From Roseibacillus sp. (GTDB lineage Bacteria > Verrucomicrobiota > Verrucomicrobiia > Verrucomicrobiales > Akkermansiaceae), in contig JBPOGI010000006.1 of assembly GCA_051251855.1 (NCBI GenBank), positions 290,902-354,901 of the forward strand: DNA of 64,000 bases. The letters run 5' to 3'. Below, one piece after another: positions 25,954 to 64,000 of the stretch. Every line of letters starts with the position of its first letter. Position 1 is the first letter of the stretch. The notes below the pieces were generated by a model. That model saw nothing but the letters and a program-made list of their open reading frames with translations. It did no database searches and was not told the DNA's origin. Both the position numbers and the translations under genes were made by a program.

Positions 25954-25954
25954 T

Positions 25955-45027: not shown

Positions 45028-45056
45028 TCCCGATATTCGGTAAACGTTGGAATATG

Positions 45057-45092: not shown

Positions 45093-45357
45093 TGGCGGCT
45101 GGCTGTTCAGGCCTTGTCATGACTTGGCCATCACTTGTCTGTCCAACGACGACGGTCCTTTCTGGGGGGGGCAGGAATTTGGAGGGCGTGTCTTGGGAAC
45201 GGCGGCATGGGAGGTTCCTGTCGGAGTCTGCGATGAGTCAAAGTAATGGAGAAGCGATCGAGGTTCGCTTAGGCGAGAAAAGGGGGATTGCAGGGGACGG
45301 AACCGAGGGCATGGCAGCTGGTGCAGGAGAGGTCCCCGCAAGCGGAAAAATCACTCA

Positions 45358-45377
45358 TGTCATCACTTTGAGGACTA
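45358..45377 (+). promoter_or_regulatory. Island regulon motif copy 5 (TGTCATCACTTTGAGGACTA)
   Basis: 18/20 identical to copy 4; upstream of the PEP-CTERM gene. Confidence 0.75.
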
Positions 45378-45470
45378 TCAAGGGCTTGCGTTTTTTGGTT
45401 CCGTTTTTCGGTGGCTCAGACTTTGCTGCTCTGCTTGGCTCCTTTAAAAATCCACTCCTTATTTAACATC

Positions 45471-46244
45471 ATGAAACCCAGAATATTTTCCTTAATCCTC
45501 GCTCTTGGAGCCTTGCCGGTCAGCGGCGCCATCACCACGAGTTTTGATGTCGATCTGAGTCCTGCCGCTCAAAATTTTGCTGCTGCTGGAGCCGCGTCAC
45601 TTACGCTGAATTACACGATTGATGGCGTAGGAAACGTGTCTCTGGACAATGTTGCACTCGGCGGTGGAGGAGGGGCTGCCTCTCCCGCGCGATGGGACCA
45701 AGTGGATAATGCGAGTGCCGGAACCGTCGCCGACGCGGCCTTGTTCAATACCACTCTGACTCTGACTTTTTCCGGTTCGGCCAACCCTATTCTCAATTAT
45801 CCATCGTATCCCAATGCCGGGACCGGGACCGGGTCCGTTCTGGCGACGCAGGGGCAGGGGAATGCCTCCGCCTTGGAGAATGGTGAATTTGCCGCGTTTA
45901 CCGTGAGTGGCTCGGCAGCGGCGGTGGCGGGGTTCTCCTTGGATTTGACGAACTTTTCTTATGACAACCGCCTTGCGAATGGCGGGTCGTCTTTCGGTGT
46001 TGAGGACACCACCGGTACCGTGATTGAGAGCCTCATCCCCAACACCTCGCTCGACGGAACCCTCTCTGGCACCGGAATCTCCCTGGCGCCTGGTGAAACG
46101 ATGACCTTCCGCACCATTGCCGGGAATGCCGGGGGCGCGGGTTTGAGTGGCTTTGAATTCACCGTGTCGGCAGTCCCTGAACCTTCCGCGGCGCTTCTTG
46201 GAGGACTTGGCCTGTTGACTCTCCTGCGCCGCCGCCGCGCCTAG
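45471..46244 (+). CDS. PEP-CTERM sorting domain protein
   Basis: Signal peptide MKPRIFSLILALGALPVSGA; C-terminus VPEPSAALLGGLGLLTLLRRRRA. Confidence 0.95.
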   Translation: MKPRIFSLILALGALPVSGAITTSFDVDLSPAAQNFAAAGAASLTLNYTIDGVGNVSLDNVALGGGGGAASPARWDQVDNASAGTVADAALFNTTLTLTFSGSANPILNYPSYPNAGTGTGSVLATQGQGNASALENGEFAAFTVSGSAAAVAGFSLDLTNFSYDNRLANGGSSFGVEDTTGTVIESLIPNTSLDGTLSGTGISLAPGETMTFRTIAGNAGGAGLSGFEFTVSAVPEPSAALLGGLGLLTLLRRRRA

Positions 46245-46276
46245 TTCCTTCGAAAGGAAGGAGACTTTTCTTTTGC

Positions 46277-46311
46277 AAACTCCCGTCCCGTATCGGATGG
46301 GAGTTTTTTTT
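46277..46311 (+). terminator. Rho-independent terminator
   Basis: AAACTCCCGTCC-CGTATC-GGATGGGAGTTT hairpin running into a T8 tract after the PEP-CTERM gene. Confidence 0.8.
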
Positions 46312-46346
46312 GACAAATATTTTTCACTCCAATTGACCCACGAACC

Positions 46347-48909: not shown

Positions 48910-49482
48910 CCAGGGCCAATCTTCCGATTTGGAAAGCTGCTTCGTTGCGGCTTCGGCCCAGCCTCGGTTGGCTGCGGAGAAGAGGGCTTCGCGTTCGGCG
49001 ACGGGGAGTTTGTCAGGAGTACGATTGCGGCTCGATTCCTCCATAAAGACGAGGGGGCAGCAGTTTGTGACGAAGTGTTCGGCGAAGAAATCGGAAGGGT
49101 CGGGATATTATTCAAAGAAAAGGCCCCAGAGGCGACGACCGGAGACTTCGGACTTTTGGCAGGCGAATCCTTCGATGAGGCGTTTGGGGTGTTCGTTGGC
49201 GGGCTTGGAGACGGCGGATTCAATTCCCATCCAGTCGCGAACGTGTTCGATTTAGCCAAAGGGGATTCCAGTCTGAGACATTCCCCAAGGACCTGAATTC
49301 ATGCCTAAGAAGAGCACGCGCTTTTTGGAATTACCGAATCGCTCCAGGTAGATGCGGTGGGGCTCCCACGCATAGTCGAGAGGATTGTAGACGTGGGTGA
49401 CGGGTTCTGCAAAAGTGAGTTTGTTGACCTCATCGCAGAGAGTCTTGGCGGCGGTGATGAGTTGGTCGGAGATGGAAGACAT
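48910..49482 (-). pseudogene. SMUG1-family uracil-DNA glycosylase pseudogene
   Basis: Same frame throughout but TAA stops at 49252-49254 and 49108-49110, GMNPGP>GMNSGP, and a ~50-codon internal deletion near 48975 that removes the HPSP motif. Confidence 0.9.
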
Positions 49483-49483
49483 G

Positions 49484-49879
49484 TCAGCGAAGCTTGAGTT
49501 TTTTGGCGAATGATTGGATGGCTTGCGCGGTGCGACGGGTGGCAGGGTAGCGGTTGCTTTTGAGATTAAATAGAGTGTCGGAGGAAATGCCTATTTTGGG
49601 TGCGAGCTTGTAACAGGAAAGGCCGGTTTGTTGGCAAATCGATTCAATCAAATCGGGGATTTCGGCGCGTTCATTCTCGACTTGGTAGCCGAGGAATTTT
49701 TCAATTTTAGGGATGCGGGAGAGGCGAGGTTCGACCAATCCACGCTCCCAATCGGACAAAATGTCGCATGAAATTCCGAGGAGGGTTGCGGTCTCTTTTT
49801 GCGTCCATCGGAGGGCTTGGCGTCTTTGTCGGAGGTGATGGCCGTAGATCGATGGCTTTCCGGGATGGCGCTCAAGCAT
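49484..49879 (-). CDS. Double-HTH (XRE-like) transcriptional regulator, intact copy
   Basis: GHHLRQRRQALRWTQKETATLLGISCDILSDWERG, plus second HTH GLSCYKLAPKIGISSDTLFNL; stop 1 nt before the SMUG1 ATG. Confidence 0.85.
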   Translation of the reverse strand: MLERHPGKPSIYGHHLRQRRQALRWTQKETATLLGISCDILSDWERGLVEPRLSRIPKIEKFLGYQVENERAEIPDLIESICQQTGLSCYKLAPKIGISSDTLFNLKSNRYPATRRTAQAIQSFAKKLKLR

Positions 49880-50061
49880 TGAAAATGAATGCTTCGAGTG
49901 GAATTGGCAAAAAGTGGCTGAATCAACCCAGAGAAATGAATGGGAGGAGGAAGGCGGTTCGACTCGAAAAAGCCTTCATTTTGGGGTTCAACAACTGTTC
50001 CCTAGCATAGCCTCAGGTGGAGAGATGCTTCTGATTTTCTAAGAAGATTTTGTAGAAGAAT

Positions 50062-50799
50062 CTACCTAGCAATGGCCTTCGTTAGTTCAATTTTAGATAA
50101 GCCTTTCGGCAGAGAAACGCCTGTTGCAAGAAGTTTGGCAAGGGCTCCGGTAAAGTAGGCGGCGGAAAAGCTGCAGCCAGTGAGTTGTGCGAAGTTGTGG
50201 TTGAGGGTTGGGACTTGCACCTCATTTCCGTCCACAAAATAGGACATGGGTCTTTTCGCGCATGCGATAGTGCTGGGGGTTTGGGGTGTTGTGTTCGAAA
50301 TCGAAAAAGCGGTTCGAAAGGAGGCGGGCCATTCGGGATAGTCTTCCTCTTCATCTGGAGAAGCGGCAACGACGTGTCGTCCAAGATCAAAAGCGTGGTC
50401 GATCCAAGATTTATAGAGAAGGCAGGTGTGGGGAGAGGCAGGCACTCCGAATGAGCAATTGAGAATGGTTGCTCCCTGGCTCAATGCGGCAAGGGCTCCT
50501 TGATGAATGATGCGGTGTCGATGCTGCCTCGGACCGTTGGTAAGAACTCGAATGGGCAACAAGGTCGCACTTGGGACGAGCCTATGGATAATTCCGGCTA
50601 CTGCCGTGCCGTGACCGATAAGGTCCTCGGGCTCTCGTTCGAACTCTTGAAAAGAGTCATCGAAATCAATTTGAGGTCTGAATTTGGCCCTCGAGAATAA
50701 GGGATGGGTGGCGTCAACACCGGTGTCGAGAATGGCGATCACGAGGTCCTCTTCTTGAGCAGAGTTGTTCGTGTTCTTATGGTCAATCGAGTCCGTCAT
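50062..50799 (-). CDS. S8 (subtilase) serine peptidase, compact, no signal peptide
   Basis: AILDTGVD (Asp), GHGTAVAG (His), LTGCSFSAA (Ser). Confidence 0.88.
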   Translation of the reverse strand: MTDSIDHKNTNNSAQEEDLVIAILDTGVDATHPLFSRAKFRPQIDFDDSFQEFEREPEDLIGHGTAVAGIIHRLVPSATLLPIRVLTNGPRQHRHRIIHQGALAALSQGATILNCSFGVPASPHTCLLYKSWIDHAFDLGRHVVAASPDEEEDYPEWPASFRTAFSISNTTPQTPSTIACAKRPMSYFVDGNEVQVPTLNHNFAQLTGCSFSAAYFTGALAKLLATGVSLPKGLSKIELTKAIAR

Positions 50800-50802: not shown

Positions 50803-51234
50803 TCAATCGATTTGTAATTTTCGGGCGGCAGACTGCAATTCAGCGAGGGAACTCGAATCAAATTCGAGCGCCTGACTGCTCTCTTCGAAACAAGCGGCGG
50901 TGAGAACTCCTTCGAGTTCATCATCTTTGAAAATAGGAGCGGCCATGAGAGATTTCACTTTCTTTCCGGAGATAGAATCGAAGGTGGGATCGTGTTCTTG
51001 GTTGGCTGGAAGGTTGTTTTCAAGGAGGGGAAGTCCGGTGAGAAAGCATTGGCTGGTGAGTCCTTTCGAGATCGGTTGAAGAAAGTCTGCCTCCAAGGGA
51101 AGTGAGGTGCTGAGAGTTGCTACTAATGCATTGTTTTCCTCATCAAATAGCCACAGAATTAGGTTGTCTGCTTGGAGTGATTTCTCACAAAGATGCAGTT
51201 TGGCGAGAAGATGTGAACGGACTCCAGAGGTCAT
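50803..51234 (-). CDS. Stand-alone GAF domain protein
   Basis: LWLFDEENNALV...KGLTSQCFLTG...HDPTFDSISG..VKSLMAAPI...GVL; stop 3 nt before the peptidase ATG. Confidence 0.8.
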   Translation of the reverse strand: MTSGVRSHLLAKLHLCEKSLQADNLILWLFDEENNALVATLSTSLPLEADFLQPISKGLTSQCFLTGLPLLENNLPANQEHDPTFDSISGKKVKSLMAAPIFKDDELEGVLTAACFEESSQALEFDSSSLAELQSAARKLQID

Positions 51235-51320: not shown

Positions 51321-52031
51321 ATGAGCACCGACTTTTGTTCTGATTTGGATTTGGCAGAGTCTGCGATTGAAGGAGATCTTGTGGCCGGTCGACAGGTGGG
51401 TGAGCTGTTGCTTTCGGATAAGTTGAAGGCGATGTTGATCAATCGTGGTGCTTCCTCAGAGGAAGCGCAGGAGATTCAGTCCGAATTGGCGGCTGGTTGT
51501 TTTTCTGAGAGTCCTCAGCGTGGAATGCTTTTTGGATTGCTGGCGAAGTACTCTGGAAAAGCTCCTTTGGCGGCTTATCTCGGGCGAGTGGCTCTCAATC
51601 GTTTGATTAGTTTGAAGAGGCGAAAGACTCCCGAGATGGTCTCGGTGGATGAAGAGGATCCGGAGAAGCCTCCCGTGCAGCTTTCTGATAGTTCGGCATT
51701 GGAAGCGGAAGATGAGGTGATCGATTTGCTGAAGGAAGCGGTGAGAAACTCTCTGCGAAGAGTGAATCAGGAGAAGCTGGTTCTGCTTCGGTTGGTGCAG
51801 TCCTATCAGCTTTCGCAAAAGCGAGTGGGGGAGATGTGGGGGTGGAGTGAGTCTAAGATTTCGCGAAATTTGGGAGAGTTGGTGGTGAGTCTTCGAGACG
51901 AAATTATGGCTGAAGTTCACGGAAGGGACCCCTGGTTGGTGGTGGAGTGGGAGGATTTTGTCGCCCTTTGCGGGGAGTCGATTGACTTGTTTGACTATGA
52001 TGTGATGGCGGAAGGTGTGGCTGCGCCATAA
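51321..52031 (+). CDS. ECF-type RNA polymerase sigma factor
   Basis: Region 2-like YSGKAPLAAYLGRVALNRLISLKRR; region 4 HTH LSQKRVGEMWGWSESKISRNL; C-terminal extension. Confidence 0.8.
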   Translation: MSTDFCSDLDLAESAIEGDLVAGRQVGELLLSDKLKAMLINRGASSEEAQEIQSELAAGCFSESPQRGMLFGLLAKYSGKAPLAAYLGRVALNRLISLKRRKTPEMVSVDEEDPEKPPVQLSDSSALEAEDEVIDLLKEAVRNSLRRVNQEKLVLLRLVQSYQLSQKRVGEMWGWSESKISRNLGELVVSLRDEIMAEVHGRDPWLVVEWEDFVALCGESIDLFDYDVMAEGVAAP

Positions 52032-52045: not shown

Positions 52046-52071
52046 TGCAAGACTGAGAGAAGAAAGCGTCA
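52046..52071 (+). promoter_or_regulatory. Putative ECF promoter copy 1 (TGCAAGA-N13-GCGTCA)
   Basis: TGCAAGA ctgagagaagaaa GCGTCA, 10 nt before ATG 52082. Confidence 0.75.
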
Positions 52072-52081
52072 ACAAGGGAAG

Positions 52082-52312
52082 ATGAGTGCAGTTACAATAG
52101 GAAACGACGAGTTTGACCTTCTGGAATCCTTTCTCGGTCTTTTTGGAAAAGAGGTCCAGGCGCATGGACGCGAGGAGTTGTCGGAAGCTGACAAGGAGCG
52201 ACTTCGGCAGTTGGCAGCAGGTCAGTTGGCCAAAGAGGAGCGCAGTGCTTTGGTGCCGCTATTAGCGAGCAACGAGTCGGCAATGGAATTTCTAGTGAAG
52301 GAAGCGGGATGA
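52082..52312 (+). CDS. Small acidic helical protein (possible soluble anti-sigma-like partner)
   Basis: 76-aa ORF directly after the sigma gene; L..LAAGQL...ER..L..LL pattern reminiscent of anti-sigma N-terminal helices. Function inferred. Confidence 0.65.
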   Translation: MSAVTIGNDEFDLLESFLGLFGKEVQAHGREELSEADKERLRQLAAGQLAKEERSALVPLLASNESAMEFLVKEAG

Positions 52313-52427
52313 CCTTCTGTTGCGCTCAATGGGCTTCTTCACGACGATTCCAAGCCGGAATCCGAGTAGAGTCCTATCGGGCAGCGAGACGAGTTCGTCT
52401 TGATGATAATTTTTTTGGAAGCAATAA

Positions 52428-55400
52428 ATGAAGGCGTTTTTTTCATTGGGAATTCTATTTTTGACCGCGCTCCATGCGCTAGGACAGCAGGCGGAGATTC
52501 TTGAGGTTGAGAACTCGGTTCAGTCAGCGAAGGCTGGGAAACGCAGCTGGAGCCGTGCGACTACGGGCCAGCAACTGGCGGTGAAGGATCGGGTGCAGAC
52601 TCTTTTCGATAGCCGGGCGATGGTTCGGGTAAGTGAGCTCTACACCATGCGCATGGATGAATTCACCACGGTGGAAATCACTCCTCGGCTGACGGGGAGC
52701 ACCAAGCCGACTCTGAATGTGGCGCGAGGGATTACTTTTATCTTTAGTCGAGAAGAGGAAGGGGAGATCGATGTTACGACGCCGACTGCGAATGCGGCTC
52801 TCAAGGGCACTCAGCTGGTGGTGGAGGTCAGTGAGGGTGGCAAGACGACGATTTCGGTGATTGAAGGGAGGGTGGACCTTTCCAACGAGTTTGGAGCGGT
52901 GGAGCTGATGGCTGGGGAGGCGGGCGAAGCCGAGAAAGGAAAGGCTCCTCGCAAGACGGCGGTGATTGAAGCGAGGAATTTGGTGCAATGGGCGCTCTAC
53001 TATCCGGGAATTCTGGATGCGAATACATTGGGGTTGGATGGGAAAGGGAGCTTGGCTGGCTCCTTGGCAGCCTATCGTCAGGGAGATGTTTTAGGAGCGT
53101 TGGAGCGCTTACCGAAGCAAGGAGGCGGGGGTGTGGGTGAGAAATTGTTTCGAGCGCAAGTGTTGCTGGCGGTGGGACGAGTTGATGACTCTACGCGACT
53201 TTTGCAAACTGTTCCTCATGAGGATTCGAGGCGTCAGGCTTTGGAGCGCTTGATTGAGGCGGTGACCTTTGTTCCTGAGAAACAGGGGAAGGGAGAGGAA
53301 CTGAGAGTCAATCTGCGATTGGGTTGGGATTCGGCGCAAGCAGAACTGGCCTTGGCGGAAAGTTATTATCAACAAGCACGACATCAATTGAAGGAGGCTC
53401 GGGCGCAGGCTCGTCTGGCAATCCAGTTGGCTCCTGACCATGGCTTTGCCTGGGCCCGGTTGGCGGAGCTGGAGTTTTCCTTCGGGGAGAATGGAAAGGC
53501 AGAGAATGCTCTGAATCAAGCGCTGAAACTAACTCCTCGCAATCCGCAAGCGCATGCCTTGCAAGGTTTCATTTTCGCGGGTCGCAATAAACTGGAGCTT
53601 GCGGAGGCCTCTTTCGAGACCGCCCTGAGCATCGATGGCGCCTTGGGGAACGCTTGGTTGGGGCGCGGGCTGGTTAAGATTCGAAGAGGAAATTTAGAGG
53701 AGGGACGGAAGGATTTGCAATCGGCTGCTACGGTGGAGCCGACGCGAGCGATTTTTCATAGCTACTTGGGAAAAGCTTTTGGCGAGGAAGGGGAGCGGAA
53801 GTTGTCAGGCAAAGATTTTGCGCTTGCGAGTCGTCTCGACCCCCTTGACCCCACTCCTTGGCTCTACTCGGCAATTGGGCATCAGAAGAGAAACCAGCTG
53901 AATCGAGCCATTGATGATTTGAGTCAGTCTGTTCGGCTGAATGACAATCGTCGGGTGTATCGATCGCAGCTTTTACTCGACCAGGATCGGGCGGTGCGAA
54001 GCGCCAACTTGGCGACGATGTATCAGAATGCGGGAATGGACTTGGTGGCGGTGCGCGAGGCGACTCGGGCTGTAGAAGCGGACTATACCAGCGCATCAGC
54101 GCACTTGTTCTTGGCAAATTCCTTTGATGCTTTGCGTGACCCGAGGAGGGTGTCCCTTCGCTATGAGACTCCTTGGTTCAATGAGTTGCTCTTGGCGAAT
54201 CTCTTCTCGCCTGTGGGCGGGGGACCTCTTTCGCAATTTGTTTCTCAGCAGGAATACTCCAAGATGTTTCATGCCGATGGCTTGGGGGCAAGTGTTCAGG
54301 GAGAATGGCGCAGTGATGAGGAGATGTTCACGACCGCTTCCGCTTTCGGATCTCATCGCAATTTTGAGTTCGGTATTGATGTCAATTATCGGCAGGCGGA
54401 TGGCAATCGCGTAAACAATCAGTCTGATTTGTTAGAGATTTATGCGCAGGCTAAGTGGCAGGCCACTCCCGATGATATTGTTTACTTTCTTGGTAAGTGG
54501 CAGGAGCAGTCGTCGGGCGATAATTTTCAGACCTTCGATAATCGTCCTCTCGAACCTCTGGTCGATTTCGATGAAAACCAGCGGCCTGGCTTGTTGATGG
54601 CGGGATGGAATCATCGTTGGAAGCCGGGAGTTCATACTTTGTTCTTAGGGGGAAGATTGAGTGCGGAGCAGACTTTGACTAATCCGCAGTCGGAGCAGCT
54701 CAAGGTGGTTCGCTCTCCTTCTCAGCTCGTTCCAGGATTTGTCGACCTTGTGGGAGGGAGTCTTCAGTTCACCGATCCTGCTCTGAATGCAGAAGTGCAG
54801 AATGCGATTGCGAGTGGCGGACCTGTCCCTGGTCAGATTGGAACGGACGGGACTTCGCTTCACCTTTCGCCAACTCTCCTCAATGCGGTGGAGCCGTTCC
54901 TTGGTTCCGGCAGTATCAGCGGGATATCGAGCACCGGTGCTCCGGGTGATCTCTCCTCCTTTGACCTTGTCACTCAGCGTGAGTTCGAAATTTACAGCGC
55001 GGATCTGCAGCAGGTTTTTCAGACAGAGCGCAGTACCCTCTTGATTGGGGGGCGGGCTCAGGGAGGGGAAATTCGGGCACGCAGTCAGCTTGTCTACAAT
55101 CGTCCAGTGGGCGATTTGGATGGCTTTGGGAATCCGGCTTCGACAGAGGAATACAGCTATGATTTCATGCGGTTCAATGCCTACGCTTATGACTACTGGA
55201 AGGTGTTGGATAGTCTCACCTTGTTAGGGGGCGTCTCGTGGGATTGGATTCAAAGTCCGGAAAATTTTCGGAATCCGCCTCTCTCGCCGGATACTCAGAT
55301 TGATCAACGTTTGTCCGGTAAGGCAGGCTTCACCTATTCTCCTTCCTCTTGGATCACGGCACGAGGAATGTTTTCGGAAGGCTTGGGCGGAGTGACCTTC

Positions 55401-56129
55401 GACGAGAGTGTGCGCTTGGAGCCGGTCCAAATTGCGGGATTCAACCAGTCCTTTCGCACCGCTTTGTCAGAATCGATCGCGGGTTCAGTGGAGACGCCGG
55501 AGTTCACCACGTGGGGATTCAGCTTGGAGGGAACCCTGCCGACTCGAACCTGGTGGGGGGTGTCTGCCAGCGGAATTTCACAGGATGTCGAGAGGGAGCG
55601 AGGCATCTTCACGGGATATACCATTCCAGTTCTCTTTGATTTGTTGCCGGTTTTCTTTCCGGATACCACGCGGGAATTACTTGAATATGAGGAATTGCAG
55701 CTCAGCGCGACTTTGAATCAATTGATGGGTGATGAGTGGGCGTTGGGGGCGAGATATCGTCTCACTCGATCTGAGCTTTCCTCCAGTCTGCCTGATTTGG
55801 GTTTGAGCTCATCTGAGGAAGCGCTTCTGCACGAAGTCTCCTTGTTTGCAGATTGGAACTCGCCAACAGGGCTCTTTGCCCGGGTGCAGGGGGACTGGTA
55901 TGCGCAATCATTGGATGGGGTAAATGATTCATCGGGTGCGGCTCGCGAGAGTGATCCGTTTTTCCAGTTCAATGCCAGCCTCGGCTATCGCTTTGCAGAC
56001 AACCAAGGAGAGGTCAGCCTTTCGGCGTTAAATCTCTTCGATCAAGATTATGAGCTCTATCCTTTGAGTCCCTATTTGGAGCTTCCACGCGAACGCACCT
56101 TTGTCGTTCGTTGTCGCTGGAATTTCTGA
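52428..56129 (+). CDS. FecR-domain + TPR + outer-membrane beta-barrel (TonB-dependent receptor-like) protein
   Basis: Signal peptide; FecR-like DRVQT...SRA...VTTPTANAALKGT...VIEGRV; many TPRs (AWARLAELEF, AWLGRGLVKI); amphipathic strands ending RTFVVRCRWNF. Confidence 0.85.
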   Translation: MKAFFSLGILFLTALHALGQQAEILEVENSVQSAKAGKRSWSRATTGQQLAVKDRVQTLFDSRAMVRVSELYTMRMDEFTTVEITPRLTGSTKPTLNVARGITFIFSREEEGEIDVTTPTANAALKGTQLVVEVSEGGKTTISVIEGRVDLSNEFGAVELMAGEAGEAEKGKAPRKTAVIEARNLVQWALYYPGILDANTLGLDGKGSLAGSLAAYRQGDVLGALERLPKQGGGGVGEKLFRAQVLLAVGRVDDSTRLLQTVPHEDSRRQALERLIEAVTFVPEKQGKGEELRVNLRLGWDSAQAELALAESYYQQARHQLKEARAQARLAIQLAPDHGFAWARLAELEFSFGENGKAENALNQALKLTPRNPQAHALQGFIFAGRNKLELAEASFETALSIDGALGNAWLGRGLVKIRRGNLEEGRKDLQSAATVEPTRAIFHSYLGKAFGEEGERKLSGKDFALASRLDPLDPTPWLYSAIGHQKRNQLNRAIDDLSQSVRLNDNRRVYRSQLLLDQDRAVRSANLATMYQNAGMDLVAVREATRAVEADYTSASAHLFLANSFDALRDPRRVSLRYETPWFNELLLANLFSPVGGGPLSQFVSQQEYSKMFHADGLGASVQGEWRSDEEMFTTASAFGSHRNFEFGIDVNYRQADGNRVNNQSDLLEIYAQAKWQATPDDIVYFLGKWQEQSSGDNFQTFDNRPLEPLVDFDENQRPGLLMAGWNHRWKPGVHTLFLGGRLSAEQTLTNPQSEQLKVVRSPSQLVPGFVDLVGGSLQFTDPALNAEVQNAIASGGPVPGQIGTDGTSLHLSPTLLNAVEPFLGSGSISGISSTGAPGDLSSFDLVTQREFEIYSADLQQVFQTERSTLLIGGRAQGGEIRARSQLVYNRPVGDLDGFGNPASTEEYSYDFMRFNAYAYDYWKVLDSLTLLGGVSWDWIQSPENFRNPPLSPDTQIDQRLSGKAGFTYSPSSWITARGMFSEGLGGVTFDESVRLEPVQIAGFNQSFRTALSESIAGSVETPEFTTWGFSLEGTLPTRTWWGVSASGISQDVERERGIFTGYTIPVLFDLLPVFFPDTTRELLEYEELQLSATLNQLMGDEWALGARYRLTRSELSSSLPDLGLSSSEEALLHEVSLFADWNSPTGLFARVQGDWYAQSLDGVNDSSGAARESDPFFQFNASLGYRFADNQGEVSLSALNLFDQDYELYPLSPYLELPRERTFVVRCRWNF

Positions 56130-56138
56130 TAGGACAGT

Positions 56139-58169
56139 ATGAAGGTGAGTGAGAAAGGAATCCGAAGAGCGAGCGCGATTTTTGGAATCGTGCTGACTTT
56201 GGTCGCTGGCTGGTTGGGGCTTTCCCGAGTGGGTCCTTTTGTCAGTTTGAGCTATGACTTGCCATTTGCGATTCATCGGGCGGCACCTTCACCGGATGTT
56301 TGTTTGGTCTATGTTACTGATCATCAGGATGGCACTTTGAGCCGTGAGATTCAGCCTGATTTGTTAGAGGCTTTGAATCGGGCAGGAGCGAAGGCCGTTG
56401 CCTACGATATCGTGTTTGAGCAAGAGGTCCCGCACGTCGATCCTGAGTTTGCGATGGCGATTCGGAAGTTTAGAGGAGTTGATGAGGAGGGAGAAGGGGT
56501 GGATGGCGCTCGCCAAAGGGAGGTCTTTTTGGCGTTCAGTCAGGTTTCATCAAGTGGAGATGGATTCGATGCCTCGATTCTTACTCGTCCTAATAATGAA
56601 CTCTACGAAGCGGTGGGCCATCATTCTCCGGTGGTGGTTTCTTATCAGGACGACAAGTATGTTGCGCGTAGAATTACTACCGAATTTGGAGATTGGCCTA
56701 CCCTTTGTTGGTCGGTGGCCTCCAGCTTCCGACGAGAGTTAAGCAATGAAGAGCCGAAGTTGGGCTTGTGGCTGAATTATCCGGGGCCTTCTCGTTCGCT
56801 TGGGAGTGAGAATGCAGGGGTGAAGATACCATGGTATCCAGCGGATGCGGTCGTTTCGGGGGGAGTGAAGCCTGCTGCCTTTAAGGATAAAATTGTCTTT
56901 GTTGGGGGAGCATTGGAAGGAGTTGATGAGGCGCTGGGGCGGGACCAGTTCATGACTCCCTATCACCGCATTTCCAAACGTTCTCCTTATATGAGTGGGG
57001 TGGAGCTGCAGGCTCTGATGACGTCCAATCTATTGGCGGGAAATGGGCTTAAGAAATCATCCCGCAAGGAGGAATCATGGGTTTTGGTGGGCTTCGGGAT
57101 TTTGGTGGCCTTGCTGATGGTCAGGCTCCGTCCCGCGTATGGTGTTGTGGCCTCGGTGGTGCTCTGTGCTTTGGTCTTTGGAGTGGGAGTGGCGACGATG
57201 AGTTTTGGTGGTTTTTGGGTTCCGTGGGCGGTGTTGGCATTGGTGCAAGTGCCGACGGCATTGCTGTGGGGGACGGGTTCGCACTTCTATATTGAACGTC
57301 TTTTCCGCGCGCGTTTGGAAGAAGAGAAGCGGGTGATGCGGGAAGCTTTTCAGAGGTATGTTTCGCCGCCGATGTTAGACCAGCTCACGGAGTCGGGTTT
57401 CTCAACCCCTTTGGGAGGAGAGAAGCGTGAGGTAGCGGTCATGTTTACCGACATCGCGGACTTCACCAAGAATTGCGAGCGGGTGGGTGACCCGGAGAAA
57501 GTCGTGGCCTCTCTCAACGAGTATTTTGAGCGGACGACGAAGGAGATCTTTGATTGTGATGGGGTGGTTATCAAGTTCATCGGGGACGCAATTGTGGCCG
57601 GATGGGGGGCTCCGGTAGATGACCCAGCAGCCGCGCGCAATGCCGCGAAGGCAGCCTGGGGATTGTTTGAAAATTCGGAACTTGAGATGGAGGGGGTGAA
57701 GCTGAAAACGCGAGTAGGAATTCACTTCGGCGAAGTGCTGGCGGGGAACATCGGGAGCAGTCAGCACATCGACTACACCTACATCGGAGACGCGGTGAAT
57801 CTGGCGGCTCGCTTGGAGAGCCTGAATAAGCAGCTGGGAACGAATATTTTGCTGAGCGAGGAAGTCGCTTCCCAATTGGGTGACGAGTTCGTGCTGCGGC
57901 GAGTGGGCAATTTTCAGGTGAAAGGGCGCAGCGAGCCTACAGGGGTATATGAGTTGTTGGGGCTAGTCTCTTCAGAGAAACAAGAAGAGTGGATTGAGGC
58001 CTATGAGAGAGGACTAGAGAGTTTTGAAGAGGGGGACTTGGAGGCTGCCCTGGATTCGTTCAAGGCTGTCGAAGGGCTGAGATCATTCAGTGATGGTCCA
58101 TCCCAGTTGCTAGTGAAAACAATTGAACAAGGAACAACGAACGGAATCATTGTGATGACCGAAAAATGA
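56139..58169 (+). CDS. CHASE2-domain class III adenylate/guanylate cyclase
   Basis: CHASE2 motifs AGAKAVAYDIVF, FKDKIVFVG, MSGVELQA; three TMs; cyclase VMFTDIADFT, KFIGDAI, YTYIGDAVNLAARLE. Confidence 0.93.
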   Translation: MKVSEKGIRRASAIFGIVLTLVAGWLGLSRVGPFVSLSYDLPFAIHRAAPSPDVCLVYVTDHQDGTLSREIQPDLLEALNRAGAKAVAYDIVFEQEVPHVDPEFAMAIRKFRGVDEEGEGVDGARQREVFLAFSQVSSSGDGFDASILTRPNNELYEAVGHHSPVVVSYQDDKYVARRITTEFGDWPTLCWSVASSFRRELSNEEPKLGLWLNYPGPSRSLGSENAGVKIPWYPADAVVSGGVKPAAFKDKIVFVGGALEGVDEALGRDQFMTPYHRISKRSPYMSGVELQALMTSNLLAGNGLKKSSRKEESWVLVGFGILVALLMVRLRPAYGVVASVVLCALVFGVGVATMSFGGFWVPWAVLALVQVPTALLWGTGSHFYIERLFRARLEEEKRVMREAFQRYVSPPMLDQLTESGFSTPLGGEKREVAVMFTDIADFTKNCERVGDPEKVVASLNEYFERTTKEIFDCDGVVIKFIGDAIVAGWGAPVDDPAAARNAAKAAWGLFENSELEMEGVKLKTRVGIHFGEVLAGNIGSSQHIDYTYIGDAVNLAARLESLNKQLGTNILLSEEVASQLGDEFVLRRVGNFQVKGRSEPTGVYELLGLVSSEKQEEWIEAYERGLESFEEGDLEAALDSFKAVEGLRSFSDGPSQLLVKTIEQGTTNGIIVMTEK

Positions 58170-58194
58170 ATTTGGCTGAGATTGATCTTTTCTT

Positions 58195-58220
58195 TGCAAG
58201 AAGGACGAGTTGTTGCGTCA
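58195..58220 (+). promoter_or_regulatory. Putative ECF promoter copy 2 (TGCAAGA-N13-GCGTCA)
   Basis: TGCAAGA aggacgagttgtt GCGTCA in the gap before the 58244 gene. Confidence 0.75.
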
Positions 58221-58243
58221 CAGTAGAAAATAAGTAGAATGAA

Positions 58244-60535
58244 ATGAAGGTTCGAAAAATGAGTTCGAGTGAGAAAATCAGGACGATGACAAGGCGGTGT
58301 TTTAGGAGAGAGCGCGAGGTTGAAGGGGTTGCAAGGAGTGTTGTCTCCTTGCTTTTCATGGCCTTCAATTTTTCTGCTTATGGTCTCGTAGTGAAGTCCT
58401 CCGATGCTCCAACGGAGGACATTATTGACTTCTCTCCACCTGGCCTTGTGGTTGATACAGCGCTACTTGATGAGGCGGTTCACTCCAATCATGCGCGAGG
58501 ACAGTTGTTTTCTTTAGGAGAGGGAATGGGCAATCGATTTTTGATTACTGGAGTTACGGTCCGTAAGAGTTCGACCCAGACATTTACTGGCGATCAACTC
58601 ACGATGAGAATTTTTAAGGGGACATCAAGCCAGTGGCTAACGGGTACTGGGCATTCGTCTGCAGAGGATGGAGACGACTACTATGTTGGGACGAGTGTGA
58701 CTGAGCTTGGCTCCGAGAGGTTCGATCTATGGGGAACGATTGAGGATAATGAGTATGTCACTTTCGAGTTTTTTGCTCCGGTCATCGTTGAGGAAAATTC
58801 GGATTTAGGGTTCTTGATGACCTATGAACAGGCTGACGGGTCCGCTTCTGATCGTTTTCGTCACTATGAGCACAATGGCATTCCGGATTCGGATGGAAAT
58901 CGTCTCTCGGTCCGGACTTCCGATCACACGGTTACTAGTTTTCGAAGGATACAGTATTTTGTTCATGGAATCGAGGTGGTCTCCCCTACTGATTTTTCGC
59001 CTTTGGCGGATGCGCTTCCAGCCTGCGTCTCTATAGTAGAAGGGGGTGACGTGACTCTTGTTCCCGATATTGATGTTGGGGCGGGAGCGACCTTCGAGTG
59101 GTTTGAGGAGGTAGTAGATGGGGCTGCGGTTCCCATTAGTTGGGCAACTTCAGCGAGTTTTCCCGCAACGGGGGTAACCGAAGAGAGCCGTCTTTGGGTG
59201 AGGATTACCGATGGTCTGGATGTGTTCGTAAGCGGGATTGTGGAGTTGCAACCAACGAGGAATTTGTGGACCTATGTTGACGCGCAGACCAGTCAATCTG
59301 ATGTCACGGGGTATACTACTTTGGGCGACGGGCAGGTGATTGTGCCGGAGGATTTGGGAAGTCTCGACTGGACGCAATCTCCTGCGATCAATCAGGGAGA
59401 CAATGCTTGGGCGAATCGAGGATACGGCAATGGCGGAACGGTGTTGGAAGCTTGGTCTGGAGAAGACGCACCGATATTGAAGACCGTGCTAACGGGTCTT
59501 GAGCCAAACGAAGTCTATCAAATTTCAGGGTATTTTTGGACAAGGCTGGACCAGAGATGGGATATCGGTTTGGGCTTGCTGGCTACCGACCCCTATCATC
59601 GCTTCTCCACGCGTGCTTGTCATTTAGGCGACTTTAATACGGACGTGAGTGGAACCTTCTTTGATGCGGGAAGATTTGGTTTGGCGGGTGTGAAAATACG
59701 TGAGGACGATCTCTATTTTCAAGAGATTGTGCTTACGGTAGCAGATGCGGATGAGAACGGAGAGTTATCGGTGCTCATTAATGATGTGCCAGGAAATGGT
59801 GGGAGAACATGGTACGATGGTCTTGGCTATCGGCTTGCGCCACTTTCTCACCGGGTTGGAGGAGGGGTGACTCAAACAAGTTTTGGAGCATCGGTGGGAG
59901 GCACTACAGGAGCTCTCAAGGTTGTGATTTCACCTCCAGAGATTGGAGCTCGATGGAATCTTGCTCCGAGTGAGCCGGATGCTCTCTTCGGGCTTGAGTC
60001 AGAGGATACTCTCTCGTCAATTGCGGCTTCATCGGAACCAAAGATTCTGGTGTTGAGTGAGGTGGAAGGATATTTGATTCCGCAAAGTGCCGAGATCGAG
60101 ATCGTGGCTGGCGAAACTGTTGTGGTAACTTACGAGTATGCTCCAGAGTCACTGCCTTTGACGAAGGAGGAGATTTGGCTGTTGAACAGCTTCGGGGAAT
60201 TGGGGCGCGAGGGAACTCAGGACTGGGAAGAAGATTTCGATGGTGATGGTCGGAGTAATCGAGTGGAGTTTCTTGCAGGCACGGATCCGGATCAGGACGA
60301 CGACTTTTTTAAGTTGGACAAGACCGGTATCGAGGGAGGGCTGTTTCGAGCCGAGTTTTTAGGGAAAGGCGAGAGGAGTTATTGTTTGGAGCGACTCAAT
60401 CTAGAGACGCTTGTTTGGGAGCCGGTGCAGGGTCAGGAAACGGGTAGCTTGTTAAGTGGAGGTTCAATCGAATTGCAGGACACCGTAAGCGGAGAAGACA
60501 AGGGCCTTTTCCGAGTGACTGTCGACTTTCCCTGA
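58244..60535 (+). CDS. Secreted multidomain beta-rich protein with Ig-like and C-terminal sorting-like domain
   Basis: Hydrophobic signal VVSLLFMAFNFSAYG; Ig-like EGGDVTL...FEWF...LWVRIT; tail DFDGDGRSNRVEFLAGTDP...KGLFRVTV. Exact start uncertain. Confidence 0.75.
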   Translation: MKVRKMSSSEKIRTMTRRCFRREREVEGVARSVVSLLFMAFNFSAYGLVVKSSDAPTEDIIDFSPPGLVVDTALLDEAVHSNHARGQLFSLGEGMGNRFLITGVTVRKSSTQTFTGDQLTMRIFKGTSSQWLTGTGHSSAEDGDDYYVGTSVTELGSERFDLWGTIEDNEYVTFEFFAPVIVEENSDLGFLMTYEQADGSASDRFRHYEHNGIPDSDGNRLSVRTSDHTVTSFRRIQYFVHGIEVVSPTDFSPLADALPACVSIVEGGDVTLVPDIDVGAGATFEWFEEVVDGAAVPISWATSASFPATGVTEESRLWVRITDGLDVFVSGIVELQPTRNLWTYVDAQTSQSDVTGYTTLGDGQVIVPEDLGSLDWTQSPAINQGDNAWANRGYGNGGTVLEAWSGEDAPILKTVLTGLEPNEVYQISGYFWTRLDQRWDIGLGLLATDPYHRFSTRACHLGDFNTDVSGTFFDAGRFGLAGVKIREDDLYFQEIVLTVADADENGELSVLINDVPGNGGRTWYDGLGYRLAPLSHRVGGGVTQTSFGASVGGTTGALKVVISPPEIGARWNLAPSEPDALFGLESEDTLSSIAASSEPKILVLSEVEGYLIPQSAEIEIVAGETVVVTYEYAPESLPLTKEEIWLLNSFGELGREGTQDWEEDFDGDGRSNRVEFLAGTDPDQDDDFFKLDKTGIEGGLFRAEFLGKGERSYCLERLNLETLVWEPVQGQETGSLLSGGSIELQDTVSGEDKGLFRVTVDFP

Positions 60536-60536
60536 C

Positions 60537-61652
60537 TCACTGGCTTTCGGTCTGCTTAACGAAGTTGGTTAAGCGTTGGACCATAGTGGTAAGGTAGTCT
60601 TGAACTGGTTCGAACTCTTGCATTCGGGCCCAGGTATCGACGACTTCAAGGGAACGGAGATCGCGGTCGCGGAGGTCGTTTCCGTCGAAGGCGGTTTGGG
60701 TGGTGAGGAGGTTGTTGGAGACCATCATGTTCCCATTGGGGAAAGTGGCGGCGAAGGATTGCAGTTCGGTAGCGGTGCGTTCGGGGGCGAGGAGCCAGCT
60801 TTGGAGGATGCTGCGTTGTTCGTTGCTGCGGACGTCGGCGCGGGCCATTTGCTGGGCGGTCATCTCGGGGCGGGCTTGGTGGAGGGTCGTGTCGGCAGCG
60901 AGGAGGGGGAGCATGGCCTCGGTCTGGTTTTGAGTGAGGCGATCGAGGGTGATGAAGCTGGCGTGGGCGAGGTCTTTGCGATCTTTATTTTGCACCAGTT
61001 CTGAGAGGAGGGGGCTGGATTCGGTGGCTCCGATGTGGACGAGGGTATCGAAGGCATTGAGATAGCCGGCCGAAGGATTCTGCTGCCAATCGGGGTTTTG
61101 GATAAGGGCTTCTGTTTTTTCTCGGAGAAAATCGCGGGAGTCTTCTTCGACGCGGGCGACATTCCGCAGCGCCAAAGCCCACTCGTCGGCGGTGGTGGGA
61201 GTGGAAAGAATTTCGCGGCTGAGTTGAGCTGCGGCCTCGGGATTGATTTTTCCGAGGTGGTCTAAGAGTGCGGTGCGAAGGGAGGCGGCAGATTTGAGCT
61301 GGCCGTCTTTTTCGACTTCGAAGGTGAGGGGGAGTTCGGCATCGTCTCCGGTGGCGAGGTAGTCTTCTACAAAGGTGGCCGCTTCCTCGGGAGAGAGTTG
61401 TTCGAGGGTTTGGCGGAGTTCGGTGAGGAGTTTCTGAGCGGACTGGGGGTCGCTGCTTTGGGCGAGGTTGGAGCAAAGCTGTTTTGCCTCAGAAAGATGG
61501 GACTGAGATGGGTGAGGGGTTGCGGGAGAGGATGGAAGAGCGTTCGGTTGATTGGGTTGACTATCAGGAGTGCTTTCTTTTCTGGAGAGCAGCACAAGAC
61601 AAAGTACGATCGCTAAACCGAGTGAAAGGAGGATGATACTTTTTGGCTTCAT
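60537..61652 (-). CDS. Membrane-anchored helical (HEAT-like) hypothetical protein
   Basis: MKPKSIILLSLGLAIVLCLVLL anchor from ATG 61652, Pro/Ser linker, helical body. Confidence 0.75.
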   Translation of the reverse strand: MKPKSIILLSLGLAIVLCLVLLSRKESTPDSQPNQPNALPSSPATPHPSQSHLSEAKQLCSNLAQSSDPQSAQKLLTELRQTLEQLSPEEAATFVEDYLATGDDAELPLTFEVEKDGQLKSAASLRTALLDHLGKINPEAAAQLSREILSTPTTADEWALALRNVARVEEDSRDFLREKTEALIQNPDWQQNPSAGYLNAFDTLVHIGATESSPLLSELVQNKDRKDLAHASFITLDRLTQNQTEAMLPLLAADTTLHQARPEMTAQQMARADVRSNEQRSILQSWLLAPERTATELQSFAATFPNGNMMVSNNLLTTQTAFDGNDLRDRDLRSLEVVDTWARMQEFEPVQDYLTTMVQRLTNFVKQTESQ

Positions 61653-61660
61653 CAAGAGAG

Positions 61661-61686
61661 TGACGTTGGAATGGAGAGAACTTGCA
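61661..61686 (-). promoter_or_regulatory. Putative ECF promoter copy 3 (TGCAAGT-N13-ACGTCA)
   Basis: Minus strand TGCAAGT tctctccattcca ACGTCA, 8 nt before ATG 61652. Confidence 0.7.
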
Positions 61687-61808
61687 CAATGATTGTATGT
61701 TTTGCGAGGGAAGGAATGCTTCTTTGGTCTTGTGATGGGCTGACTGTGGTCCTTAAGCTGCTCTGTTTTCCGGTAGAATTGGCTTTCGAAAAAAAGTTTG
61801 AGAAATTC

Positions 61809-61834
61809 TGCAAGAGCACGAGAACGTTGCGTCA
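61809..61834 (+). promoter_or_regulatory. Putative ECF promoter copy 4 (TGCAAGA-N13-GCGTCA)
   Basis: TGCAAGA gcacgagaacgtt GCGTCA upstream of ATG 61895. Confidence 0.75.
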
Positions 61835-61894: not shown

Positions 61895-63268
61895 ATGAAA
61901 AAGTTCCTATATTTCATCACCTGCCTCTTACTGACATTCAATTCCTCCCTTTGGGCGGATATTGTTGTTCCCGGGGCAGATGGTTCGGACTGTGATCTGA
62001 CGATCACGGTCGATACCGAGATTGATTTGTCACTGGCTGCGACTGCACCTTGGAATGCCAGTTATGCCACCTTGGCGGCAGCAGACCCTGACCGAGCGGC
62101 GGCTGACTATATTGCGAAAGGAGTCTACGACCCTGAGAAGTGGGCGGTGGTCTTTCGCTATACCGATGTGAGTATCGCGGCAGGGGCGACAGTGACGTTT
62201 AAGAATCACCCGAGTCGGGCTCCGGTGGTTTGGCTGGTCAGTGGGGATGTGGATATTGCGGGGACGGTGAGTTTGGATGGGGAGAACGCTGCCGACGTGG
62301 TGGTTACTCGGCCAATGAGACAGGCGGAGCCTGGGCCAGGTGGTTTTCGAGGAGGTCTCTCCACTCATGATGTTAGCTCTCCTGTCTTTCAAACCTTGAA
62401 TCAAGGGTCGGGCTTTGGTCCTGGAGGGGGCAATATTGGCGACGGCCCCGGAGCGAAAAAGGGACATGGCGGAAACTACTTCACTGCTTCATCGCAGACT
62501 AGCGAAGGACCTCGACCTATTCTTTATGGGAATCCAAGTTTGTTGCCATTGATTGGAGGGTCTGGGGGGGCTGGAGATGGTGAGCGTATTTTCGGAGATG
62601 TTGGCGGGGGCGGAGGCGGAGGTGCAATTCTTGTTGCTTGCAAGAATTGCATCTCTTTGAGCGGTATAATTCGTGCCAATGGTGGCCCCGGTTTCGGCTC
62701 GGGTGATAGGGAAACAGGTGGTGGAAGCGGCGGAGGAGTTCGAGTGGTTTGCAATGAATTTAACGGTGACGGAGCAATCCAGACCGCAGGCGGAGGAGAG
62801 GGGTGGTCAACCGGAGGCTTGGGTCGAATTCGTATCGAGAGGGTCCTCGTCGACAATACTCTCAACTTCAGTCCAACTCCGAGTTCCGCTGTTCTTCTAG
62901 ATGATGACGAAGCATTAGTTTGGTTACCTAATATTGCTCCAAGTGCTGAGTTGATTTCGCTCGAAGGAGTCATGGCTCCTAGCGATCCACGAGCAGGAGT
63001 TGATGGAGAAAGTTTCGGGCCAGATTTTATTGCGGGGAATTCACCCACTGCTGAAGCGGTGATTGAGACCACAAACCTTCCTCAAGATGGGACTGTTCAA
63101 ATACGAGTGAACCGGAGGACAAACGGGGATTATCAAACTGTGCAAGCAACGTTTCACTCTCAGATTAGCGCAGATCCTTTGGTTTTGAGATGGGTCGCAG
63201 ACGTACCAATCACCGATGGCTATTCTGCGATTCAGGTTCGGATCGCGACGCCTTCTTCGAATCCGTAG
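61895..63268 (+). CDS. Secreted glycine-rich domain protein
   Basis: Signal peptide MKKFLYFITCLLLTFNSSLWA; GPGGFRGG, GGSGGAG, GGGGGGGAIL, ANGG, GGGSGGGVRV motifs. Confidence 0.8.
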   Translation: MKKFLYFITCLLLTFNSSLWADIVVPGADGSDCDLTITVDTEIDLSLAATAPWNASYATLAAADPDRAAADYIAKGVYDPEKWAVVFRYTDVSIAAGATVTFKNHPSRAPVVWLVSGDVDIAGTVSLDGENAADVVVTRPMRQAEPGPGGFRGGLSTHDVSSPVFQTLNQGSGFGPGGGNIGDGPGAKKGHGGNYFTASSQTSEGPRPILYGNPSLLPLIGGSGGAGDGERIFGDVGGGGGGGAILVACKNCISLSGIIRANGGPGFGSGDRETGGGSGGGVRVVCNEFNGDGAIQTAGGGEGWSTGGLGRIRIERVLVDNTLNFSPTPSSAVLLDDDEALVWLPNIAPSAELISLEGVMAPSDPRAGVDGESFGPDFIAGNSPTAEAVIETTNLPQDGTVQIRVNRRTNGDYQTVQATFHSQISADPLVLRWVADVPITDGYSAIQVRIATPSSNP

Positions 63269-63302: not shown

Positions 63303-64000
63303 ATGATGAAAACGAATTGGAGAGCGATTTTGATTGGGATGCTTAGCCTTGGGCTAAGTGCGATCCAAGCAAGAGCTGTTGAGCAATTCTATCAGGTCGA
63401 TTCGCAATCATCCTTTTATAACATCGTAAGCAATTCTCCTCTCGTCGTTGAGCTAGCGAGTTTGGAGATTTCTCCCGGGGATGTCATCTCTTTGACTAAG
63501 AAGGGGAGCTACGATGGGGGTGGCTCAGTTGGAGTGAGAGGGCGGTTGCGGGCCGTCTTTAGTGCCTCCAACCAATTGTTACCTATCGGCAATGACCATC
63601 GTGTAGTGGATGCTATTGAAGCTGGAGATGATGTCGTTAGTTTTGCGCCTGATATTCCTGAAGACTTTAGCTTGTTAGGAGTGAATCATGCAGATGACTT
63701 CACTCTTCAAATCGAAGTTCCAGCGATGGCCGGTTACCTTTTTTTTGGAGTAGGGGATAGTAATTTCGGAGACAATTCGGATCCCGATGGAGACTTTGGA
63801 GTGACGATCAGTTCGAACTCTTGTGAGACCTTCGAGTATCCTGAATTCATCACCCGCGAGTATTCGGTCTTTTCGTCTTCCGAATCGGACCCTGGGCAAC
63901 CTTACCAAGAGTTCATCACCCGCGAGTATTCGGTTTTCTCGTCCTCCGAGTCCGATCCTGCCCAACCTTACCAAGAGTTCATCACTCGTGAGTATTCGGT
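63303..64000 (+). CDS. Secreted protein with 22-aa tandem repeats (partial, runs off window end)
   Basis: Manual translation MMKTNWRAILIGMLSLGLSAIQARA...; open to 64000; not in the ORF track. Confidence 0.8.
   Translation, partial: MMKTNWRAILIGMLSLGLSAIQARAVEQFYQVDSQSSFYNIVSNSPLVVELASLEISPGDVISLTKKGSYDGGGSVGVRGRLRAVFSASNQLLPIGNDHRVVDAIEAGDDVVSFAPDIPEDFSLLGVNHADDFTLQIEVPAMAGYLFFGVGDSNFGDNSDPDGDFGVTISSNSCETFEYPEFITREYSVFSSSESDPGQPYQEFITREYSVFSSSESDPAQPYQEFITREYS
63843..64000 (+). repeat. 66-bp coding tandem repeat (at least 2.4 copies)
   Basis: Units start at 63843, 63909 and 63975 and encode EFITREYSVFSSSESDP(G/A)QPYQ, differing mostly at synonymous sites. Confidence 0.9.

Follow-up and report, generated by a model that had tools for sequence, protein, structure and literature searches.

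A 64,000-nucleotide stretch of a Roseibacillus sp. genome (Verrucomicrobiota, order Verrucomicrobiales, family Akkermansiaceae; assembly GCA_051251855.1, contig JBPOGI010000006.1, positions 290,902 to 354,901; hereafter the window) carries four copies of a bipartite motif around a gene cluster that encodes a sigma factor, an outer-membrane receptor, a nucleotide cyclase and several secreted proteins. Which protein reads these motifs, and what kind of circuit do they tie together? Comparison with orthologous loci indicated that the four motifs are very probably promoters of the adjacent sigma factor (gene at 51321-52031), a divergent protein related to extracytoplasmic function (ECF) sigmas. 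What is new here, and the main point of interest, is the module of this sigma factor, its putative inhibitor and a GAF protein, rather than the motif.

The original prediction described the motif as TGCAAG(A/T)-N13-(G/A)CGTCA. Written as TGCAAG-N15-CGTCA, which is the same pattern, it had four exact matches in the window, compared to a mean of 0.04 and a maximum of 1 in 100 dinucleotide shuffles. The putative promoter sites, together with a weaker match proposed before the receptor gene, are the following.

52046-52071, plus strand: site 1, with -35 element TGCAAG and -10 element CGTCA, 14 nt after the sigma stop codon and before the gene of a 76-amino-acid protein (the small gene)
58195-58220, plus strand: site 2, before the gene of a 763-amino-acid secreted protein
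61661-61686, minus strand: site 3, before the gene of a 371-amino-acid membrane-anchored protein (p371)
61809-61834, plus strand: site 4, before the gene of a 457-amino-acid secreted protein
52349-52374, plus strand: weak look-alike before the receptor gene, lacking the near-invariant G of GCA

As had been claimed, all four copies have identical spacing and lie between open reading frames, each pointing at the next gene, with gaps of 10 nt (to 52082), 23 nt (to 58244), 8 nt (to 61652) and 60 nt (to 61895); sites 3 and 4 stand back to back within a single intergenic region. The spacers share no further common sequence, and the sites are therefore not copies of a repeat. In the whole genome (4.96 Mb, 13 contigs) the exact motif occurs five times, and four of these copies are the window's own; the probability that three of the other four genome copies fall within 10 kb of one copy is about 3e-7. 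The weaker match before the receptor gene fared differently: its sequence is present, but it scored 5.4 bits compared to 16-19 for the four real sites, and the best antisense scores in control windows reach 9-13 bits. It was rejected as a promoter because it is indistinguishable from background. The receptor and cyclase genes are likely transcribed from site 1 as well, and site 4 probably also serves the giant-protein gene behind the 457-amino-acid gene. The absence of a copy upstream of the sigma gene was borne out, as the best score there was below 0 bits. Scans for sigma-70 promoters and terminators performed no better than chance.

The same motif was recovered de novo beside orthologous sigma genes. 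From 194 loci, six weak matches and those with less than 110 nt past the sigma stop codon were removed, leaving 71 loci after dereplication at 80% identity, and an expectation-maximization run was made on the 70 post-sigma regions from other genomes. It returned TTYGCA(A/T)-N16-(C/A)GT(C/T) with a log-likelihood of 280, compared to 78 and 94 for two shuffled sets that were run with fewer starts. The matrix scan of orthologous loci suggested in the original prediction placed the motif after the sigma stop codon, with a spacer of 16 nt, in 40 of the 70 regions; a spacer of 17 nt was found in 7 and any other in at most 4, and 67 of 2840 random 150-mers (2.4%) matched the motif. The motif was directional: it stood upstream of 41 of 62 small genes in the sense orientation compared to 3 in the antisense orientation, and upstream of sigma genes in 5 of 69 compared to 6 of 69, in line with the absence of a copy before the window's own sigma gene. 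In one genome (G540), two sites stand upstream of genes that precede its fused sigma, a form described below. Across loci, no motif was found before the GAF gene (0/43) or the S8 subtilase gene (0/39), both of which mostly lie downstream of the small gene in the same operon. One locus (L023) has a site before a divergent GAF gene, beyond the upstream window of the main count, and was the sole such case among seven divergent loci examined.

The motif also follows genes through rearrangement, as seen in L022 (which has five good sites), L023, L069, L083 and G597, and it preceded a DUF4190 gene in 8 of 9 cases. Orthologs of p371 with a site were found in L022, G036, G552 and G597; a test of sites upstream of p371 gave 3 of 6 compared to 0 of 5 (p 0.18), a sample too small to decide. 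As a separate observation, L023 (9836-18598) holds at least eight motif copies, two paralogs of the small gene and long fn3/Ig proteins in one locus.

The near-leaderless spacing that had been proposed for two sites was retained only in part. For sites 1 and 3 the distance to the ATG is 10 and 8 nt, respectively, and very short leaders are plausible there from the sequence. Among 53 orthologous small genes examined, with starts chosen by rule, 47 had a site, which lay within 11 nt of the start in 8 and 16-153 nt away in the others. The Chthoniobacterales-type loci L047, L049, L057, L082 and L150 have a leader of 100-150 nt with a conserved GC-rich block between promoter and small gene; this block may be a structured RNA.

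A matrix built from orthologs only was used to scan the Roseibacillus genome, and sites 1, 4, 2 and 3 ranked 5, 10, 14 and 32, respectively. Most of the other top-ranked matches were in coding DNA. There was no genome-wide excess at spacer 16, either in all sites (108, compared to 73-113 at other spacers) or in promoter-like sites (10, compared to 6-16). The regulon of this sigma factor is thus likely local, with perhaps a small number of genuine targets farther away.

Two further comparisons tie the motif to this sigma family. First, gene maps and searches of the genomes were used to label receptor genes as sigma-linked or unlinked; for part of the unlinked loci the view extended only 1.5 kb to each side, and six of these genomes encode a sigma homolog at another place. 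A site scoring 12 bits or more preceded 9 of 14 linked receptor genes (one of them marginal) compared to 1 of 23 unlinked genes, with 1 of 37 in the antisense orientation; the Fisher p of 1e-4 is overstated, as related genomes are not independent. Among the five linked receptors without a site, four, including that of the window, lie downstream of the sigma gene and the small gene on the same strand. Second, in 51 sigma factors with a site, residue 177 is Glu in 27 of 30 loci with GCAA and Gln in 21 of 21 loci with GCAT. It is by far the best covarying column (0.77, compared to 0.47) and opens helix 177-202 of the sigma4 helix-turn-helix, the predicted recognition helix in the structural model. 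The covariation is suggestive of a direct readout of the -35 base by this residue; on a quick tree the Glu/Gln pattern takes three changes, at least two of them forced, and 4 of 5 rows of one clade have doubtful sites. For the -10 variants CGTC, AGTC and CGTT, no clearly covarying sigma residue was found. Collectively, ortholog footprinting, receptor linkage and covariation with the recognition helix supported the original proposal that the sigma encoded at 51321 reads these ECF-type promoters.

The sigma factor itself belongs to a family that standard profiles recognize poorly. It consists of sigma2, a linker and sigma4, followed by a C-terminal extension of about 30 amino acids (DPWL..W.DF..LC). 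It matched TIGR02937 with an E value of 9e-10, under the cut-off, and had no Pfam sigma2 or sigma4 match; among its homologs, at E 0.1, 9 of 31 matched sigma2 and 1 of 31 matched sigma4. The ECF re-classification of Casas-Pastor et al. requires, according to the searched text of PMC7826278, Pfam hits to both domains. Judging by these counts, the family would mostly fail that filter. An AlphaFold model (pLDDT 83) resembles the ECF sigmas SigL, AlgU, sigmaE, SigW and SigK; segments 5-108 and 123-211 aligned to the sigma2 domains of SigW and SigC and the sigma4 domains of SigL and SigD with Z scores of 8.3-8.8. The top Foldseek matches were ECF sigmas (best E 0.003), and sigma3 was absent. A sequence search of the PDB with the sigma profile gave only weak matches to the sigma4 of FliA. 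With the sigma profile at 1e-30, 106 of 401 genomes of the order matched. About half of these form a distant clade, in which a DUF459-like gene follows the sigma in the loci inspected. The named homologous loci are from Verrucomicrobiota wherever a phylum is given. The searched ECF supplement text (PMC7826278) contains no mention of CHASE2 and no gene context matching this family, and a literature search, largely at the level of abstracts, found no description of the family or of a fusion of sigma and GAF. The family is apparently an undescribed Verrucomicrobia sigma.

The genes of the cluster in the window are as follows.

50062-50799, minus strand: cytoplasmic S8 subtilase (Pfam; no signal peptide seen; triad D25/H63/S210 intact)
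50803-51234, minus strand: stand-alone GAF protein (Pfam GAF), divergent from the sigma gene
51321-52031, plus strand: divergent ECF-like sigma factor of 236 amino acids (TIGR02937 below cut-off, AlphaFold model, alignment)
52082-52312, plus strand: 76-amino-acid soluble helical protein, predicted zinc-free partner resembling an anti-sigma domain (synteny, weak zf-HC2 likeness, fusion)
52428-56129, plus strand: outer-membrane FecR-TPR-beta-barrel receptor of 1233 amino acids with NsrA-like architecture (domain matches)
56139-58169, plus strand: class III nucleotide cyclase of CHASE2 type in which the catalytic motifs are found; no other PF00211 match in the genome
58244-60535, plus strand: predicted secreted protein of 763 amino acids, of no Pfam or NCBIfam family
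60537-61652, minus strand: p371, N-terminally anchored and probably of HEAT repeats, a conserved member of the receptor-cyclase cassette
61895-63268, plus strand: predicted secreted glycine-rich protein of 457 amino acids, with homologs before a giant gene in genomes G036 and G189
63303-64000, plus strand: start of a giant secreted Ig/fn3/cadherin-like protein of about 3500 amino acids, cut by the contig end and resumed on contig C9

The window ends where its contig (C10) ends, with an identical overlap of 77 nt with the start of C9. On C9 the giant protein goes on and is followed by a stand-alone cyclic nucleotide monophosphate (cNMP)-binding protein of 154 amino acids and then by a DUF3307 gene. 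The length of the giant protein is approximate, as the repeat count at the junction of C10 and C9 is uncertain.

The original prediction missed the conserved partners of the sigma factor, the proteins in which they are naturally fused and the part of the cluster that lies on C9. In 23 sigma loci flanked by 8 kb or more to either side (the long loci), the small gene was present in 23, the GAF gene in 19, the S8 subtilase gene in 18 and a class III cyclase gene in 14; the small gene directly follows the sigma gene in 59 of 71 loci. The small protein is soluble and helical, without conserved Cys or His, and appears as a helical segment in the fusion model too. Its profile matched 496 representatives, of which the top 150 are, with few exceptions, short proteins that stand alone. 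By sequence and by fold, the closest solved structures of the GAF protein are those of CyaB2, Lcd1 and PDE2A, which bind cyclic AMP (cAMP) or cyclic GMP; in structure, the fused GAF matched best the Lcd1 GAF with cAMP bound. The Asp of its 'VDxxTG' motif is near-invariant in the family and the second Thr is mostly kept. In the subtilase, the triad D25, H63 and S210 is invariant in 31 of 31 sequences.

The fusion was first seen in two receptor-bearing genomes, where one protein of 466-477 amino acids comprises the sigma factor, the small domain and the GAF domain. The sigma, small-protein and GAF matches had E values of 2e-14, 3e-8 and 3e-17, respectively. Scoring of 7999 candidates gave 108 such proteins, most of about 460 amino acids, and 6 of 351 genomes of the family have one. 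The fused sigmas have Glu at position 177 and GCAA sites. Fused loci stood beside a receptor and a cyclase in 6 of 8 cases examined, and no partner subtilase was found near any of the eight; that subtilase subfamily was not found in four of four fusion genomes (best 2e-32), compared to E 2e-98 in the control G240. No fused sigma was found in viral contigs. More divergent proteins of 506-528 amino acids, at L297:230-1750 and L299:1465-3051, align with the fusion along most of the chain and have a GAF domain at the end. In the closest same-genus relative (L015, G008:C32:2273-3118), the sigma, small, GAF and S8 genes and the motif are kept; an internal deletion has left only a remnant of the receptor there, and a search of that genome gave no cyclase.

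The cyclase links this module to a possible second messenger. The Roseibacillus genome (95% complete) has one class III cyclase (PF00211) and one cNMP-binding protein (PF00027), the 154-amino-acid protein on C9, which has no helix-turn-helix; no convincing CRP-like protein was found in it, only two weak PF13545 matches in unrelated open reading frames. The class III cyclases of the 14 long loci lie within about 10 kb of the sigma gene and are of CHASE2 and TPR-S types; the CHASE2 cyclases occur with a barrel receptor, with TPR-CHAT proteins or with separate FecR and porin genes. TPR-CHAT genes were near 7 of the 23 long loci. Because 61 relatives hold just 89 cyclase matches in total, at most 8 each, adjacency of sigma and cyclase by chance would be a few percent; that count leaves out the soil lineages among the 23 long loci.

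The motif, its spacing and orientation, its conservation beside this sigma family, the gene core and the natural fusion are established by sequence comparison, and from these parts a circuit can be proposed. The sigma factor would be made independently of itself, without autoregulation, and the small protein, which is probably an inhibitor of the sigma factor, would bind and silence it. As site 1 would drive the small inhibitor gene, it would provide negative feedback. The GAF protein would sense the ligand that works the switch. In the split form it would permit the subtilase to clear the inhibitor away; in the fused form, where the partner subtilase is missing, it would act in cis. Once freed, the sigma factor would transcribe the inhibitor gene, the receptor and cyclase genes and those of several secreted surface proteins, and induction of receptor and cyclase would give positive feedback. 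In the least certain step, the outer-membrane receptor would sense a signal and the CHASE2 cyclase would make cAMP. Taken as a whole, the explanation as a local ECF-like regulon with a small anti-sigma factor, a GAF switch, a receptor-cyclase pair and surface proteins is favored on balance. cAMP is a tentative candidate for the ligand of the switch, and the complete chain from receptor through CHASE2 cyclase, cAMP and GAF to a sigma factor freed from a soluble inhibitor is put forward with considerable doubt.

Several observations weigh against parts of this circuit. The likeness of the small protein to zf-HC2 is weak (4 of 54 members, best E 0.002; Atlas 0.82), and so is the match of its profile to DdvA (E 1.6). 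The window's subtilase has Asp in place of the near-invariant Asn149, and no motif was found before the GAF and S8 genes in the Roseibacillus genome. No cyclase was found nearby in 9 of the 23 long loci. Furthermore, G204, G296 and G330 have cassettes of receptor, cyclase, p371 and giant protein that lack both this sigma and the motif; a cNMP gene belongs to the cassettes of G204 and G296 and lies near that of G330. Because such cassettes exist, the cyclase does not need this sigma factor. The pocket residues and the NK...F...DE motif have defined roles in nucleotide-binding GAFs. In this family the pocket is only partly like those of PDE2A and CyaB2, the first Thr of 'VDxxTG' is mostly Leu (Ser in the window), the NK and DE of the second motif are not kept, and non-nucleotide GAFs match too.

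These points fit an alternative in which the promoter assignment is right and the switch senses a ligand other than a cyclic nucleotide; the cyclase would then be a mere target gene, and cAMP would be read by the stand-alone cNMP-binding protein, or by cNMP-glutaminase proteins in relatives. The cassette of G204, which keeps both the cNMP and DUF3307 genes in the absence of this sigma, the long loci without a cyclase and the divergent GAF pocket are all as this alternative would have them. It accounts less well for a core that is found time and again beside cyclase modules of differing build, for nucleotide-binding GAFs as the best sequence and fold matches and for the lack of a detectable CRP in the Roseibacillus genome, and we consider it a minority possibility that deserves to be taken seriously. 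Beside the cassette cNMP genes, Glutaminase-STAS-cNMP proteins and a calcineurin-like phosphoesterase were seen (L065:7865-9679, L301:657-2537, L292:2909-3661); the former are candidate cAMP effectors and the latter is a possible phosphodiesterase.

A second alternative concerns the promoter assignment: the sites could be promoters of another genomic ECF sigma that reads GCAA/CGTC, with the neighboring sigma a bystander. Motifs of this type are common among ECF groups, being listed in the searched text of PMC7826278 for ECF21, ECF30 (SigV/SigW type), ECF218, ECF263 and ECF279, and the Roseibacillus genome has 46 TIGR02937 matches. In G310 the receptor has a 16.8-bit site and no sigma of this family was detected. 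The lack of a genome-wide excess at spacer 16 is hard to reconcile with a sigma acting elsewhere in the genome, and across the phylum the motif is bound to the locus of this sigma factor and varies with its recognition helix, so that the alternative is improbable. A third alternative, in which a dimeric transcription factor uses the sites as operators or the sites are what is left of a repeated or mobile element, could draw on an Xre-type helix-turn-helix gene at 49484-49879 and a duplicated segment near the cluster edges and is most improbable, as the boxes are asymmetric and strand-oriented toward genes, the spacers are unrelated and the spacing is fixed at 16/17, which fits ECF -35 and -10 elements.

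Compared to known systems, the Roseibacillus locus combines features that occur apart elsewhere. In RsiG-WhiG (PDB 7lq4), c-di-GMP gates a sigma/anti-sigma pair, WhiG being of FliA type and c-di-GMP acting through the anti-sigma factor. A nucleotide second messenger acting on a sigma factor is likewise proposed here, and RsiG-WhiG involves no GAF or protease. The GAF of the window has its best matches in the cAMP-binding GAFs of Leptospira Lcd1 (PDB 5w10) and Anabaena CyaB2 (PDB 1ykd). Those GAFs control enzymes (GGDEF, cyclase) according to the searched text of PMC8846402, whereas the GAF of this family is joined to a sigma factor by coupling or fusion, and cAMP is a candidate ligand only.

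In Sinorhizobium meliloti, an outer-membrane TPR/beta-barrel receptor of about 1200 amino acids is coupled to CHASE2 cyclases, and the receptor gene, smb20495, is the most Clr-induced gene (searched text of PMC7529298, PMC13001267 and PMC5498481). Like NsrA-CyaK/CyaD-Clr in the same sources, the Roseibacillus locus has, in architecture only, a TPR/barrel receptor with a CHASE2 cyclase and a receptor that would stand behind a promoter of its own output. However, the output there is Clr, of the CRP family, whereas the search for a CRP in Roseibacillus gave none and its receptor and cyclase genes stand downstream of sigma-type promoters; FecR, which in S. meliloti is named in a separate protein (SMc02177), is part of the receptor chain here. 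By analogy, the Roseibacillus system is possibly a sigma-based analogue of NsrA-CyaK-Clr and not a member of it.

Among ECF groups, as far as the searched text of PMC7826278 goes, ECF21, 30, 218, 263 and 279 share with this system the bipartite TGCAA.../CGTC motif, the sigma2-sigma4 architecture and a partner gene at +1. They differ in having mostly membrane anti-sigma factors or C-terminal transmembrane extensions, compared to the soluble 76-amino-acid partner, GAF and S8 here, and their motifs were predicted from self-regulated promoters, whereas the promoter here lies after the sigma gene and not before it. ECF54 of Actinobacteria is likewise encoded with subtilases and TPR-CHAT proteins; it belongs to another phylum, has -10 CTCC and -35 GTATCAG, and is listed in that text without a GAF, a cyclase or a fusion. 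No ECF group in the searched text fits the window system. DdvS/DdvA of Myxococcus xanthus (searched text of PMC11506125) resembles the system proposed here in an anti-sigma domain of about 70 amino acids and three helices and in release by proteolysis, but DdvA is a zinc-binding membrane protein and its sigma factor is autoregulated, whereas the partner here is soluble and without zinc ligands. The searched text of PMC8195603 describes other ECF-associated systems (EACC2-caspase), which are distinct from this one.

Some features of the surroundings should also be recorded. A 22-amino-acid tandem repeat (EFITREYSVFSSSESDP...) in the giant protein, at 63826-64000, breaks the assembly between C10 and C9, and the C-terminal 220 or so amino acids of the 763-amino-acid protein share 38% identity with the end of the giant protein, possibly as a common export or anchoring module. 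Two copies of a 955-bp segment, 92% identical, flank the cluster (window 48974-49928 and C9:11080-12034), with a third copy at 72% near 25475-26385. The segment consists of the 5' part of a uracil-DNA glycosylase gene, which we take to be SMUG1-like, with upstream DNA, and the window copy is truncated; the duplicated segments may mark where an acquired island of some 26 kb starts and stops. Upstream of the cluster (41692-48674) are genes for a Laminin-G/fn3 secreted protein, a PEP-CTERM protein and a GH92 mannosidase, none of which has the exact motif.

The promoter alone is an ordinary ECF-type motif, yet through it one can define the regulon of sigma factors whose family ECF filters would largely miss and is widespread in Verrucomicrobia, about half of it as a distant clade with another gene context. 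The fused protein of sigma factor, inhibitor and GAF is a single-chain, probably ligand-gated sigma factor for which cAMP is a candidate ligand. If it is gated in this way, it would offer a compact inducible switch for synthetic biology. If the gating by cAMP is true, many Verrucomicrobia would have a route from cAMP to transcription without CRP that turns on giant surface proteins, and NsrA-like receptor/CHASE2-cyclase pairs outside rhizobia would have an output.

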